From contig CAMAVK010000004.1 of the NCBI GenBank assembly GCA_945861715.1, positions 784 through 64,783 of the forward strand: a stretch of DNA of 64,000 nt. Reading direction: 5' to 3'. The DNA comes from Candidatus Woesearchaeota archaeon. GTDB taxonomy: Archaea > Nanobdellota > Nanobdellia > Woesearchaeales > GW2011-AR9. The translations under genes and the position numbers were made by a program. Below the pieces are notes generated by a model. That model searched no databases. It was not told the DNA's origin and worked only from the letters and a program-made list of their open reading frames with translations. Each line of letters opens with the position of its first letter. Position 1 is the first letter of the stretch. Shown here piece after piece: positions 20,834-29,952 of the stretch.

Positions 20834-23335
20834 TTATATCAGATTTAATTGTTGGTTTTGGGCCAATATTCTTTTGATGTCTGCAAATGTTCGTTCTGCT
20901 TTGGTTTGATATATATCTAAAGCAGGTGGATGTCCTTCATTTATTGGCCTTAGTATGGCACGGACTCCGGTTGTTGATTTGGTTGTGTGTATATGTTGTG
21001 TTCCAGCGGCGTAGGTTACGTACATGCTGGGGGGGTAGGGGTTGATTATTTTGTCATGCAGTTCTATGAGGTAGGCGTGTGCATAGATGTCTTTTGTTTG
21101 ACTTAGTATGACTTCGAGTTCTTTTTTTGCATCCGGTGAGAAATGGTCATGAATTCGATGTTTCATTTGTTGGAATGCTATTTTTGTTTCCGATGAGGCA
21201 GTGGAGGTGTTTAGGATTTGGTTGAATTCTTCTTTATAGAAACTTCGTGTTTTTTGAGTGATATAGTATGCTGCAATTGGGAGTTGTCCTGTATAATATT
21301 GTTCGAGTTGTTCGTTTAAGTTGTGGAGTATTTTTGGGTGTGACTCATGGTTGAAGAATTGGTCAATGATGGCTTGAAGTGTAACTTTTTCAAAATCTGT
21401 GCGGGTGTGAAAGGTTGCGTTTATTCCTTGATATATTCTTGGATATGGTGTTTGTGCTGCTAAGTTTATGGGGTGTGGATCCGTTACGAATCGGCCCGGT
21501 GAGAGGGATAGTACTGGGCCTGAACCCAGGTATACTCCCATTCCATTTTTTTCTAATGTACTGGCGTCAATTTCTTTTTCTAGCAGGTAGAGAAGAGGAC
21601 TTGAATTGATGTAGCCTTGTTGCTGAATTCTTGCATGCACACGTTGAATGTTGGTTGTGAGGTTAGTCATGAAGTTTTGTATTTGTTGAGGTTTGAGGCC
21701 GTAACGTTTGCTTAGATTTCGTAGCGCGTTGGTGATTTCGTCAGTTGGGACTTTGGTTTTGAGTCTGGTTGCTTGTTCAAATAATGGTCTTGTGATTTCT
21801 TGAAGGCTGTTGAAATAATCCATTTTTATTATTGGGTCGTTGGTTTCTTGCGCTGCGCGGTATAGGGTGGTGTTTTGCAGAAATTCTTGTGCTGCGTGGA
21901 GCGCGGGCGTTAGTGATATCACATATGCCGTTTCTATGAAACCTTGTTTGAATTTGAGTGCTTGTGTTGTTGTTGTTTTTTGGGTATGCGGGTGTGTTGT
22001 TTTTTCTTGGTTTGGTGTTGTCGTTGTTTTTTGTTCAATAGTTTTTTGTGTGTGGGTTAAGATTGCATTATGGATATATTCTTTCGCGGGGATATTTCGA
22101 ATTCCTGTGTGAATATTTTTTCTAGAAGGGTATCCTTTGGTGTAGAAATGTTGGCGTTCAAGAAAATCGTTTACAATGGTAGGATGTGATGTTGCACTGA
22201 TTGTATCGGGGTCTCGGCCGAAAAAATGAGCGAGGTTAGCCACGATTGGACGTATTTCAAGGGCGAGGTTTTGTGCGTGAATGCCATCCATGATACAATA
22301 TGTTGCGAGGGTTTCGAAAACCTGCTGGTTCCCTGCTTTTGCTTGAGCTAGAAGAATTTCTTGTTCGTCATAGTCTATGGTTTTTTCGAACCCTACTAAT
22401 GTTTCTAGTTTTGTGTTTTGAAATAAGGATCGGTGATTTTTTGCAAATTTGTGTGTGTCAAGGGTGAAGCGTCCTTGTGTTATTACTTTTCCTAAGCCTT
22501 GCACTGATTTGATAAGGGGGCGTTTTCCTTGCGTTCCTGGAGTGTAAGTTTTTGTGATGTTTCTTATTTTGATTTGGTCAAAAGACATGATGTTGTGGCC
22601 AAAGATCCATAAGGGGTCGTCAGTGTGTATCAGTTCGGTTAGAATTTCTCCGAGGTCCTGCTGCGTGCGATATCGGAGGAGGGTTATGTTTTCTAGATCA
22701 GGGCTCTTGTTTGCTTGTTGAATGGTTCTTAATTGTGTTTGGTTGAAGGGGAGATTGTGGAGGAGAATGTGGTGATTTTGTGAGAGGTAGATGGCCATGA
22801 AAATTTGGTCTTTTCCTTGTTTCCATCCATCGAGCTCGATGTCTAATGTGACATGTGTGTCGTTGATTATGGATTCTATTGGTGGGTGGAGGTTGTATTG
22901 GGGTGGGGTGATTATTGTGGGTGGAAGATGCGAGGGGTTTTCTATGGTGGTACAGGGTGGGTAGAGGTAGCGAAGATAGGTACTTGGGGGATATTGTAGA
23001 TGTCGGGTGTGGTATGATGGGTTTTTCGTTACGAATGGTGCGTCAAGAAGGGTTTTTGTGTCCTTTGCTGTATCTAAGGTAAGAATGCGATTTGGATAAT
23101 ATGGGATTTCATTGGTTGTGTATGGAGTGCCTTTGAGGAATTCTTGAAGTGATGTTTTGAGTTTGGTTGCTTCTATATCTGAAATTGGACTTGTGAAAAA
23201 ACGATGAGGGATGTTGGCAAGGAGGTGATACGTTGCACCAATCATTGTTTTAGGATTGAATTCTCGAATGGTGATTATTGTTTGGTCGCCTTTGATTGGG
23301 TGGGTTGGACGAATATTTGTAATGTACCAATGCAT
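20834..23335 (-). CDS. Family-B DNA polymerase homolog: intact 3'-5' exonuclease motifs, apparently inactivated polymerase
   Basis: ExoI LDIELD, ExoII GHNIMSFD, ExoIII YCIMD, and thumb-like RTDFEK and YVTY...LDIY. No DFxSLYP, KxxxNSxYG or YGDTDS is present. Confidence 0.8.
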   Translation of the reverse strand: MHWYITNIRPTHPIKGDQTIITIREFNPKTMIGATYHLLANIPHRFFTSPISDIEATKLKTSLQEFLKGTPYTTNEIPYYPNRILTLDTAKDTKTLLDAPFVTKNPSYHTRHLQYPPSTYLRYLYPPCTTIENPSHLPPTIITPPQYNLHPPIESIINDTHVTLDIELDGWKQGKDQIFMAIYLSQNHHILLHNLPFNQTQLRTIQQANKSPDLENITLLRYRTQQDLGEILTELIHTDDPLWIFGHNIMSFDQIKIRNITKTYTPGTQGKRPLIKSVQGLGKVITQGRFTLDTHKFAKNHRSLFQNTKLETLVGFEKTIDYDEQEILLAQAKAGNQQVFETLATYCIMDGIHAQNLALEIRPIVANLAHFFGRDPDTISATSHPTIVNDFLERQHFYTKGYPSRKNIHTGIRNIPAKEYIHNAILTHTQKTIEQKTTTTPNQEKTTHPHTQKTTTTQALKFKQGFIETAYVISLTPALHAAQEFLQNTTLYRAAQETNDPIIKMDYFNSLQEITRPLFEQATRLKTKVPTDEITNALRNLSKRYGLKPQQIQNFMTNLTTNIQRVHARIQQQGYINSSPLLYLLEKEIDASTLEKNGMGVYLGSGPVLSLSPGRFVTDPHPINLAAQTPYPRIYQGINATFHTRTDFEKVTLQAIIDQFFNHESHPKILHNLNEQLEQYYTGQLPIAAYYITQKTRSFYKEEFNQILNTSTASSETKIAFQQMKHRIHDHFSPDAKKELEVILSQTKDIYAHAYLIELHDKIINPYPPSMYVTYAAGTQHIHTTKSTTGVRAILRPINEGHPPALDIYQTKAERTFADIKRILAQNQQLNLI

Positions 23336-23679
23336 GTTATGTATAATGATTTCATTTTAAACTGGATTTGTGGTTTTGGAAAGATATTTCATAGCAAGCA
23401 TGTTTTAAGCAAATGAGGATTAGTTAGTACTTGAAAGTGACATATTTAGCAAAAGATTTATATAGTCGTTGTCTTTTGATAGTAGTTAACACCTAAAAAC
23501 CACCTCTTTTCCTCGGCGAACTGATTTATTAGTTTGCTGGGGTTTTTCCTATTTTTCTTGCTTTGTGATTTATTGTCAATCACTTCATTTTTACCTTTGA
23601 TTCACCAAATAAAGTTATATTTTGGTTTTTTCTATTTTGTACCGACACATTTATATAATAGGCTTTATTATACTCGTTT

Positions 23680-23757
23680 GCCCGGCACAGAGAGTACCTG
23701 TGGGAGCCTACGGCATGGTCCAAGTCATGAACGCAGGGGTTAGTGGTGCGGGCGTCA
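23680..23757 (+). ncRNA. Putative small structured RNA (long hairpin, H/ACA-guide-like architecture)
   Basis: GC-rich island in an AT-rich spacer. Pairings gcccg-gcac/gtgcgggc and cctgtg/cgcagg. TATA-like TTTATATA at 23650-23657. Confidence 0.5.
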
Positions 23758-24128
23758 TTTACCAAATATCCATAGTTACATTGTATAATTAGATTGACAT
23801 TTTTCAGTTTGGTTATACGATAATAAAAATAACAAATTTGTTTCGATTACGATATGTTGTTGTCATTGCTTGCAAAAAAAATAAATCCTTATCACATTCA
23901 TCATATATCATTGTAGTTCGTTTAGGTTAGTGTCAAGACGGTTAGAATTGGTATAGCTAGGTTTATTTTTTCTGGAAGTACTTTGTGGATTGTTTGGTTT
24001 ATGAAGGTATGGTTAGAACTATACCTATTAAACCGATTACACATGAGTATAATTTTGATTCATTTCCGTTAAGAGATGTTTTCATATTGTTTCATTAAAA
24101 TTTCGAGCAAGAGCTCGTGGAGGACTTT

Positions 24129-25610
24129 ATGGCAAAGATTAGCCCAGTTGCGGCAAAATATATTGTACATTCAACTATCACTATTGATGGTATTGTAGAT
24201 CGACCAGATGTTATTGGTGCGATTTTTGGACAAACTGAGGGATTGCTTGGTGCAGACTTAGAATTACGTGAGTTGCAGCGAAGTGGTCGAATTGGACGTA
24301 TTGAAGTTAATATGAATACGGTTTCTGGTAAGACAACTGGTGAGATTATTATACCAAGTAGTTTAGATAAGACTGAGACAGCAATTGTTGCGGCTGCTCT
24401 TGAGATTATTCAACGTATTGGTCCGTGTAACGCGAAAATTGAAGTTCATAAGATTGAAGATGTTCGTACATCGAAGCGACAATTCGTTATTGAAAGAGCT
24501 AAGGAACTTCTTCGTGAGCTTACTGAGGAAACTCTTCCAGATTCGCAAGAAATTGCAGATGAAGTTGCTCAATCAGTTCGTATGATGGAAGTAGGCGAAT
24601 ATGGTAAGGAACGACTTGCGTGTGGCCCGGCTATTGAAGAAAGCGATGAGGTTATTCTTGTTGAAGGTCGAGCAGATGTATTGAATCTATTAAAACATGG
24701 TTTCAAGAACGTTATTGCAATGAATGGAACGTCTGCTCCACAGACGATTCGTGAACTTAGTCGACGAAAGACGATTACCGTGTTTGTTGATGGGGATCGT
24801 GGCGGAGATTTAATTGTTCGTGAATTGCTTGCGAATGCAGAAATTGATTTCGTTACCAAAGCACCAGATGGGAAAGAAGTTGAAGAACTGGCGAAAAAGG
24901 AAATTCATAAAGCGATTCGTTCACGGATTACCGCTGAACAAGCTAAGATGGATTTGGGTATTGATGAGCATGGTCAACTTAAAGATCAAGAGGAAACTCT
25001 TCGACATCAACCTTTTAGAACGCAAAAGAATGTTGGGTCAGTTCAAATTAACCCGAATTACCACGCTCAAGCTGGTTCTGCTCCATCGCATTCACCAGTT
25101 GGTCAAATGGGATATGCTGCTCATTCTGCGCAGGGTATGGTTGCTGCAGTAAAGAAAACTGAGAAAGTTGATTCTACTCCAATGGTTGCTCCTGTAAAGC
25201 CGCAATCGAGTGTTGCTGTGAATTCTTCTCGAAGCGTTGGTGGGCCAGTTGTTCCTAATGGTGCTTCTCGACCCCGTGAGATGATTAAGGAAGTTGTTGT
25301 TCCTAAGAAGGCGGGTTTGTCTGATGAGGAAAAGAAGTTGTTTAAAGCAACACTTGAAGATATGTTTGGAACTCGAGGAGCTTGCATATTTGATCATAAA
25401 CTTGCAATTCTTGGAAAAGTTCCTTTGTCTGAACTTCCATCTACTATTAAGAGTTTGAATGGCGGTGTGTATGCTATTGCTCTTGATGGCGCGGTTGAAA
25501 CTGAACTTGTTAAGTTAGCTGAGAAGATTAACGTAACTTATCTTGTGTGTTCAAGTTCAAAGAATAAGGATCCAACGAAGATTCAGATTTTAACAGAAGA
25601 TAAGTTGTAG
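24129..25610 (+). CDS. dnaG: Archaeal DnaG (bacterial-type primase, exosome-associated)
   Basis: Motifs GIVDRPDVIGAIFGQTEGLLG, LRELQRSGRIGRI, TOPRIM ILVEGRADVLNL and FVDGDRGG, and APDGKEVEEL. Confidence 0.97.
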   Translation: MAKISPVAAKYIVHSTITIDGIVDRPDVIGAIFGQTEGLLGADLELRELQRSGRIGRIEVNMNTVSGKTTGEIIIPSSLDKTETAIVAAALEIIQRIGPCNAKIEVHKIEDVRTSKRQFVIERAKELLRELTEETLPDSQEIADEVAQSVRMMEVGEYGKERLACGPAIEESDEVILVEGRADVLNLLKHGFKNVIAMNGTSAPQTIRELSRRKTITVFVDGDRGGDLIVRELLANAEIDFVTKAPDGKEVEELAKKEIHKAIRSRITAEQAKMDLGIDEHGQLKDQEETLRHQPFRTQKNVGSVQINPNYHAQAGSAPSHSPVGQMGYAAHSAQGMVAAVKKTEKVDSTPMVAPVKPQSSVAVNSSRSVGGPVVPNGASRPREMIKEVVVPKKAGLSDEEKKLFKATLEDMFGTRGACIFDHKLAILGKVPLSELPSTIKSLNGGVYAIALDGAVETELVKLAEKINVTYLVCSSSKNKDPTKIQILTEDKL

Positions 25611-29584: not shown

Positions 29585-29952
29585 GGTAGGGTGGCGTAAG
29601 CCGCCTTTTGTTAGGCCCAAAGAAAAACCGTCATATATGTTTTTCCGATAGCCATTGAAAGCATTCTACTTAGCGTCGAATCGACTTGCACCAGGGGGGT
29701 TTCACCGTTTCATCGTTCCCACAAAAGACGTCGATGGGTTATCTCATGTATGTTGCCATACACTTCGCCAGGTCATTCCATTTTTGTGGACGTGTCGTGT
29801 CTGAGCCAGAGCCACGGAATTTCTCCGTCTGACATTGTATTCAGTCCCTTTTTTTAGGTGGGCGGACTTTCCTCACAGGCTAAATCATTTTACTGATCTA
29901 TGGGACTTATTGCATTCCCTAAAGCTTGCGTAAGCTTTCTGCCACTACTACC
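29585..29952 (-). ncRNA. rnpB: RNase P RNA
   Basis: The minus strand has GAGGAAAGUCCG (P4 5' side), GAAACGGUGAAAC and AACAAAAGGCGGCUUAC (P4 3' side). The termini ggtagtagtggc/gccaccctacc pair as P1. TATA-like CTTAAATA lies just upstream. Confidence 0.93.

Follow-up and report, generated by a model that had tools for sequence, protein, structure and literature searches.

The stretch of DNA analysed here, hereafter the window, comprises 64,000 nucleotides (nt) of contig CAMAVK010000004.1 from a Candidatus Woesearchaeota archaeon, and this report concerns a small RNA (sRNA) gene within it, which is likely to encode an H/ACA-type guide for helix 69 (H69) of 23S rRNA. The gene lies in an AT-rich spacer (23336-24116), described as divergent/tandem, between a PolB-like open reading frame (ORF) on the minus strand (20834-23335) and dnaG on the plus strand (24117-25610; Pfam Toprim). 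The latter is the downstream neighbour of the RNA and shares its strand, and is not part of it. A GC island stands out within the spacer, with 55% GC in 80-nt windows and 62% over the RNA itself, compared with 24-35% in the flanks. It holds a single hairpin of about 78 nt on the plus strand (23680-23757), which was matched over its full length by a covariance model, R1, at 23680-23758 with a score of 89.4 bits. An earlier interpretation made from the letters of the window (the sequence-only reading) had proposed that this unannotated hairpin could be a stand-alone variant H/ACA guide or, failing that, a new sRNA or riboswitch class.

Upstream of the hairpin, a sequence resembling the B recognition element (BRE), ACCGACACA, is followed by the TATA box TTTATATA (23650-57), the two together occupying 23641-23657 on the plus strand as read from the sequence. 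The first G of the RNA follows ~26 nt downstream of the centre of the TATA box. BRE and TATA elements were found about 25-30 nt upstream of the RNA core in nearly all of the relatives detected by BLASTN, and (A)CCNAAnnaTTTATA(T/A)A or a close variant (TTTAAA in L016) stands at the same distance in all 17 family- and order-level orthologues except the order-level L015. When a strict regular expression for the TATA box was applied to 78 Woesearchaeota loci, 35 had a match at -35 to -30 and 39 had one over -36 to -24. The TTTATATA element would be expected to act as the guide's own promoter. At the other end, the sequence just after the stem reads GUCAUUU, and the RNA's 3' end probably falls within the short U-run (UUU) at 23758-60. 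The TATA box, the GC-rich hairpin, its upper stem and the facing GA and AUGA segments were all located where the sequence-only reading had put them, and its remark that the stem is not followed by ACA was correct.

The lower stem, P1, is composed of a 5' strand, GCCCGGCAC (23680-23688), and a 3' strand (23743-23753) that reads GUG, a 2-nt bulge GU (23746-47) and GCGGGC. It has six plus three pairing positions, GCCCG(G) facing 23748-53 and CAC (23686-88) facing GUG (23743-45), of which eight are paired in the window and one, G23685/G23748, is mismatched. P1 falls within the 7-9 base pairs (bp) of a lower stem that closes a large internal loop, and 94% of its alignment cells are paired; CAC/GUG, CAU/AUG and UAC/GUA alternate among the orthologues. 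This stem had been foreseen by the sequence-only reading, together with a symmetric internal loop of eight by eight nt. The stem was retained and the symmetric loop was not, since the comparative data place CAC opposite the first GUG, with GU bulged, and thereby give an asymmetric pocket of AGAGAGUA (23689-23696) and GGUUA (23738-23742); in the window sequence alone both registers are possible. Above the pocket, CCUGUG (23697-23702) pairs with CGCAGG (23732-23737) to form the 6-bp upper stem, P2, which reads, for example, UCUAAG/CUUAGA in L016. Below P1, a spacer G (23754) leads to a 3' box, UCA (23755-57), at the position of the ACA/ANA box of H/ACA RNAs.

P2 leads into a kink-turn (K-turn) made of a non-bulged strand, G-GA-GC (23703-23707), and a bulged strand, GU-CAU-GA-A (23724-23731). 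G23703 lies opposite A23731, the tandem sheared pairs join G23704 with A23730 and A23705 with G23729, CAU (23726-28) forms the 3-nt bulge, and GC (23706-07) and GU form a C-stem of 2 bp (G23706-U23725 and C23707-G23724). The tandem G.A pairs had been predicted as part of a K-loop; the pairs are present, and the loop is a true K-turn with a 2-bp C-stem and a CAU bulge. Readings of the conserved loops as a K-loop or as a sarcin-ricin/loop-E motif were dropped for the K-turn once it was seen that the C-stem pair covaries (C-G, U.G or U-A). The K-turn is positioned 6 bp above the pocket, with nine stacked layers up to the distal G.A pair; in archaeal H/ACA RNAs, the K-turn lies above the pocket at a distance of 5-6 bp, and the GA stem comprises 9-10 layers (PMC7991803, PMC7075261, PMC4652768). 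L7Ae would be a plausible ligand of this K-turn. The apical part (23708-23723) consists of an internal loop, CUAC/AA, and a short stem, P3, of the form GG(C)/(U)CC (23712-14/23719-21), capped by a variable loop. The apical loop carries insertions of 25-50 nt, partly self-complementary, in L017 (1504-1605), L018 (1501-1625), L028 (1242-1356) and L092 (933-1059), and the RNAs at these loci are 102-127 nt long.

The conservation of the hairpin was assessed at several depths. A BLASTN search recovered the 78-nt core from 17 of 40 relatives, at 77-91% identity. The covariance model R1 detected exactly one full-length copy per genome in 318 of the 401 genomes of the phylum sample, among them genomes of other orders in the class, and each of 30 divergent genomes gave one copy when searched again without the strict filters (30/30). 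In a MAFFT alignment of 16 sequences that was not fitted to any structure, the four helices had 91.8% of their cells paired and eight pairs changed on both sides; none of 500 shuffles matched this pairing and covariation, and slid partners were 21-46% paired. A larger alignment of 69 sequences, which is model-fitted and so biased towards the structure, had 18 of 20 pairs changed on both sides, with slid partners 26-41% paired. Both-side changes affected eight of the nine pairs of P1 and all six of P2, and P3 covaries from G-C to A-U. P1, P2 and P3 were also recovered independently by RNAalifold.

The single-stranded elements are conserved to a comparable detail in the same 69 sequences. The core of the non-bulged K-turn strand has G in 67 and A in 69, and that of the bulged strand has U in 67, G in 69 and A in 69. 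The 3' guide reads GUUA in 68-69 sequences, preceded by G in 35 and by A in 30, either of which fits U1915 of the proposed target. Covarying homologues upstream of dnaG, the comparison suggested by the sequence-only reading, are thus present in the relatives. On this comparative record, the hairpin is a real, conserved and previously unannotated small RNA gene.

No Rfam family matched the hairpin, even at E<=10, in agreement with its description as unannotated; three matches at chance level lie downstream, at 23800-23878. Another known class of RNA, namely a tRNA or tRNA-like element, a C/D box sRNA, a fragment of the signal recognition particle (SRP) RNA or of RNase P RNA, or a riboswitch, is an extremely unlikely identity for the hairpin, and so is a short coding region. 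The GC-rich stem followed by N-UCA superficially resembles an acceptor stem with N-CCA, and ARAGORN lists only 20 tRNA genes in the genome (17 with introns, none in the 64-kb window), so some, or even many, are probably missed owing to unusual introns. However, ARAGORN found no tRNA at the hairpin any more than Rfam did, and the hairpin has neither a T-loop nor a D-arm. It contains no C/D boxes, and RNase P RNA is found elsewhere in this archaeal window (29587-29950). Three short ORFs overlap the hairpin region, but the indels of 1-2 nt and the apical insertions of 25-50 nt seen among the orthologues are incompatible with a coding region. The suggestion of a new sRNA class or riboswitch found no support; the conserved loops are explained by complementarity to H69.

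Both pocket strands are complementary to H69 of the organism's own large-subunit (LSU) rRNA, GGGAG-UAACUAUAA-CUCUC-U (LSU positions follow Escherichia coli numbering). The 5' guide strand AGAGAGUA pairs through U23695-A23689 with A1919-U1925, the 3' strand of the helix, to give 7 bp with -8.2 kcal/mol, and the 3' guide strand GGUUA pairs through A23742-G23739 with U1911-C1914. G23738 is either unpaired or in a wobble with U1915. U1915-A1916-U1917-A1918 are left unpaired between the two duplexes, and the first three of them are unable to pair except for the optional G23738.U1915 wobble. Since 16 guide nt (23739-23754) extend from the last pair of the 3' guide to the box, U1915 is placed at n+17 and U1917 at n+19. 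Positions 1915 and 1917, numbered 1947 and 1949 in the LSU rRNA of the organism itself, are the universally conserved pseudouridines (Psi) of H69, and in haloarchaea they are made by Cbf5 and an sRNA (PMC2584109). The core target pattern occurred in only 0.9% of shuffled rRNA operons.

The sequence-only reading had predicted CUAACC-NN-UACUCU as the target. Its half-sites were roughly right and its spacing was wrong, the complementary sequence being UAAC(U)-AUA-ACUCUCU with 3-4 unpaired nt, and a literal search for the predicted target fails for that reason. A canonical search that assumed two unpaired nt, run in three registers against 16S and 23S rRNA and the whole genome, gave no convincing match: the best rRNA match agreed at 9 of 12 positions, and the G.U-rich matches across the genome were indistinguishable from chance. 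H69 was found by a separate search for half-sites in which a gap of 3-4 nt was allowed. A second match in the LSU rRNA was rejected as a target, as its gap contains no U and hence no site for pseudouridylation. The tRNA targets Psi54/55, tRNA-Tyr Psi35, Psi13 and Psi38-40 were examined by hand and were also rejected, for the residues next to them cannot pair with the pocket.

We then compared the guides with H69 across genomes. In ten genomes of the window's order, which have C1920 (H69 ...GAG-UAACUAUAA-CUCUC), the guide reads GAGAGUA; in one further genome it reads GAGAUUA. C1920 is also present in G096, a 0.5-Mb single-contig genome resembling that of Nanoarchaeum equitans (locus L141 1371-1573), and the guide there reads GAGAGUC. 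Thirteen genomes of other orders have U1920 (...GAA-UAACUAUAA-UUCUC), and the guide places A opposite U1920. In G254 the target is UAACUAUGAUUCUC, with G1918, and the guide has C opposite. The guide and H69 covary at positions 1920 (G-C or A-U) and 1918, each change being compensatory.

Separately, the 23S gene was seen to be interrupted right after ...UUAAGGU in several related genomes (L172, L173, L174/L178, L184, L185/L191, L189/L192 and L190). The break point corresponds to E. coli U1931, six nt 3' of the guide target, and in the three cases in which its continuation was seen, the remaining rRNA resumes ~300-700 nt further on. These interruptions look like rRNA introns at a conserved site; the 23S gene of the window's own genome is uninterrupted.

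The 3' box differs between lineages. The family to which the window belongs has 25 UCA and one CCA, in the other families of the order ACA occurs 11 times and UCA twice, and the other orders have 15 ACA, 11 AUA, three AAA and one GCA; outside the family, ACA, AUA or AAA thus stands at the box position in 40 of 43 orthologues. Among 79 Woesearchaeota loci linked to dnaG, ACA was counted in 46, UCA in 21 and CCA in five. The last A of the box is kept in 69 of 69 sequences. Because the wider alignment reads N-ACA, N-AUA or N-AAA outside the window's family, the comparison identifies ANA as the ancestral box and UCA as a derived variant that retains C-A. The pocket-to-box distance varies as well. 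The 2-nt bulge of the lower stem is missing in 11 of 30 class-level orthologues, and one further orthologue keeps a single nucleotide; where the bulge is missing, pocket and box are a canonical 15 nt apart and the target uridines fall at n+15 and n+17.

The position of the gene relative to dnaG is also conserved. In 79 of the 80 Woesearchaeota loci with dnaG, the RNA lies upstream of that gene on the same strand, and the gap measures 59-565 nt (median about 230). Conversely, dnaG is linked to 57 of the 58 RNA loci, among them 29 of the 30 in other orders, and the only locus without this linkage is that of the N. equitans-like genome G096. The gene upstream of the RNA, unlike dnaG, is not conserved among relatives. 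This synteny on one strand beside a variable upstream neighbour, together with a U-run so short (UUU) that read-through into dnaG is possible, would suit a hairpin that is mainly a cis-acting dnaG leader, for instance an L7Ae-binding K-turn that controls dnaG. We consider such a leader very unlikely. The spacer between the RNA and dnaG is AT-rich and variable in length, and no alternative structure was found. The most conserved part of the hairpin is not the K-turn alone but the pocket strands, which match H69 and covary with it, and an ANA box is conserved at the H/ACA position. Moreover, the N. equitans homologue lies away from dnaG and accumulates as a discrete sRNA, and cotranscription with dnaG would in any case be compatible with a guide function.

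The partner genes of an H/ACA guide were also sought. Cbf5, the synthase expected to use the guide, is encoded in the window, as the sequence-only reading had pointed out, at 583-1584 on the minus strand, with Pfam domains DKCLD, TruB_N, TruB_C_2 and PUA. Nop10 (contig C2, 85842-85982) and L7Ae (contig C7, 14099-14422) are encoded in the same genome outside the window. A strict H/ACA descriptor scan of the genome revealed no second convincing hairpin, and a looser one returned 211 matches and was uninformative. A lone guide in the genome is in line with N. equitans and Haloferax volcanii, which have a single H/ACA sRNA each.

Cbf5 itself was compared between lineages that differ in the box. 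The UCA family differs from the ACA lineages at thirteen positions, among them residue 259 in the PUA motif HGAxL, which is A in 10 of 11 ACA-box genomes and R or K (HGR/KxL) in all 12 of the UCA-family genomes examined. In the UCA genomes outside the family, this residue is R in G028 and T in G035, and T also occurs in one ACA genome; none of the other 12 family-specific substitutions occurs in G028 or G035. The number of independent events is too small for the pattern at residue 259 to be more than a lead. A natural re-tuning of the PUA-box contact, in which the A-to-U switch of the box is accompanied by the HGAxL change in Cbf5, is a speculative proposal that we hold to be rather improbable, and we are equally doubtful about a separate one, that the guide-dnaG tandem is a real transcription unit. 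DnaG has been reported as a subunit of the RNA exosome in other archaea. Were the tandem proposal true, such a unit would tie the making of the sole guide for rRNA pseudouridylation to DnaG.

Collectively, these observations place the window RNA in the known class of H/ACA guides, as a member with a UCA box variant and an extended spacing. The sequence-only proposal of a stand-alone H/ACA-type variant guide with its own TATA box was borne out by ACA or AUA at the UCA position in orthologues, by the invariant K-turn, by the encoded partners and by the covariation with H69. As to its function, it is likely, in our estimate, that the RNA is a trans-acting guide, and that it exposes the H69 residues U1915 and U1917 to Cbf5 in the U-N-U-N (UNUN) mode. 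The RNA would be transcribed from its own TATA promoter. L7Ae would then bind the K-turn, the PUA domain of Cbf5 would bind the lower stem and the 3' box, and Nop10 would join them, by analogy with characterised archaeal ribonucleoproteins (RNPs). In such an RNP, the pocket would open H69 of the 23S rRNA precursor, with GGUUA pairing with U1911-C1914 and possibly U1915, and AGAGAGU pairing with A1919-U1925, so that U1915-A1916-U1917-A1918 would be left unpaired before the active site of Cbf5. One pocket could thus make both pseudouridines, one after the other, in the UNUN/UVUN mode described for stem-loop 2 (SL2) of sR-h45 of H. volcanii; modification may also be limited to one of the two uridines.

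Several findings weigh against this proposal. Where an ANA box would be expected, the window has G-UCA (23754-57), and its UCA also departs from the intact ACA of dual-site UNUN guides. The pocket-to-box distance is 17 nt (23738-23754), outside the canonical 14-16. The duplex with the 3' guide is short and weak (4-5 bp, -1.4 kcal/mol), and the covariation between guide and target reflects no more than about two or three events that are independent of one another. The minimum free energy (MFE) fold on the plus strand is no more stable than those of shuffled sequences (z = 0.02), and it is accordingly conservation and covariation that carry the case for a real RNA. A search of the whole genome for Gar1 found nothing with PF04410, a model that passed its cut-off in only two of four archaeal controls; either Gar1 has diverged beyond the reach of the model or the RNP functions in its absence. 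Finally, nothing in three unrelated groundwater metatranscriptomes aligned to the locus.

The box and the spacing bear directly on a further explanation, in which the RNA of the UCA lineages is of H/ACA type and yet makes no pseudouridine, being either a degenerate guide or purely a folding chaperone of H69, or else makes one of the two only. The first A of the box has been lost in 25 of 26 family members, the 17-nt spacing exceeds the canonical one, and the atypical reaction of H. volcanii needs the ACA box, the mutant tested there being UGU and not UCA (PMC7075261). On the other hand, purifying selection within the UCA family is strong on the pocket and the K-turn as well as on the final CA of the box, and the 17/19 spacing works in H. 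volcanii. In archaea, the PUA domain of Cbf5 also binds tRNA at its CCA end (PMC7991803), and among accepted guides of Pyrobaculum there are degenerate NCA boxes and one CCA box (PMC4652768). We therefore judge such an RNA to be unlikely and retain the functional guide as the preferred explanation, its least certain point being the support that a UCA box would give to the atypical UNUN reaction.

The RNA gene is ordinary in kind, and it defines a class-wide DPANN family aimed at H69. A near-universal, single-copy family of H/ACA guides in DPANN Nanoarchaeota is missing from Rfam and from genome annotations, and our literature search found no paper on this guide family in Woesearchaeota. The distribution of the family suggests that very reduced archaea keep Cbf5, Nop10, L7Ae and a guide apparently for the H69 pseudouridines alone, and the upkeep of a guide machinery for one job would highlight how much these two modifications matter. 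If the H69 assignment is right, the atypical UNUN dual-site mechanism is extended from one haloarchaeon to a whole class, and the UCA and CCA variants offer natural test cases for how strictly the PUA domain requires the first A of ACA.

Among the known systems, the guides of Pyrococcus (Pf9, Pab91) and of Pyrobaculum (sR201/sR202 and the H/ACA-like RNAs) have a layout like that of the window RNA. In canonical guides the lower stem measures 7-9 bp and the 3' guide 5-6 nt, the GA stem counts 9-10 layers, and a 3' box is present. The Pyrococcus and Pyrobaculum guides differ from the window RNA in leaving two nt (U-N) unpaired, in the 14-15 nt that separate the pocket from the box, and in their targets. 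Their sequences bear no detectable similarity to that of the window RNA, as judged from the lack of an Rfam match. In eukaryotes, snR191 is a two-hairpin H/ACA small nucleolar RNA without a K-turn or L7Ae. According to a title cited in PMC2377435, snR191 of yeast guides Psi2258 and Psi2260 of 25S rRNA, the two most conserved pseudouridines of H69, which are equivalent to E. coli 1915 and 1917 (table in PMC2584109).

The closest functional parallel is sR-h45 SL2 of H. volcanii (Majumder et al. 2020, RNA 26:396; Blaby et al. 2011), which has the same target as that proposed for the window RNA, namely the H69 equivalents of E. coli 1915 and 1917. It makes Psi1940 and Psi1942 sequentially from an unpaired UAUG, with spacings of 17 and 19 (PMC7075261). 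Deletion, rescue and reconstitution in vitro established this function, which depends on the ACA box and on the G.A pairs (PMC7075261). Common to the two RNAs are U-V-U-N left unpaired in one pocket, the 17/19 spacing and a K-turn with tandem G.A pairs. In contrast to the window RNA, sR-h45 SL2 belongs to an RNA of two hairpins, carries a canonical ACA box and acts on UAUG, where the window target reads UAUA. The likeness may reflect homology or analogy.

Stem 2 of the N. equitans H/ACA sRNA, in contrast, is a direct sequence homologue of the window RNA. The sequence that the model matched in G096, with 51.6 bits, agrees at every position with the 3' hairpin of the N. equitans RNA as published (Randau 2012, Genome Biol 13:R63), and stem 2 has in common with the window RNA the lower stem GCCCGGCAC, the pocket GAGAGU/GUUA, the K-turn and the place of the box. 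The pocket in G096 is complementary to the H69 of that genome, UAACUGUAACUCUC, in the same UNUN arrangement. The two RNAs differ in that the one from N. equitans consists of two hairpins (159-164 nt), carries an ACA box and lies away from dnaG, whereas the window RNA has one hairpin and UCA. The targets predicted for stem 2 by RNAsnoop in 2012 were U614 of 23S rRNA and U796 of 16S rRNA, and H69 was not among them (PMC3491384). Presumably it was missed because two unpaired nt, the canonical number, were assumed, as opposed to the gap of four nt, and the predicted target of the published stem 2 would accordingly be revised to H69. The N. equitans H/ACA sRNA (339411-339574) is represented by 10,900 RNA-seq reads and has a box-A promoter and a U-run terminator (PMC3491384, Additional file 2). 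Since the match in G096 corresponds to this published, RNA-seq-detected sRNA, the guide family of the window has one experimentally detected member.

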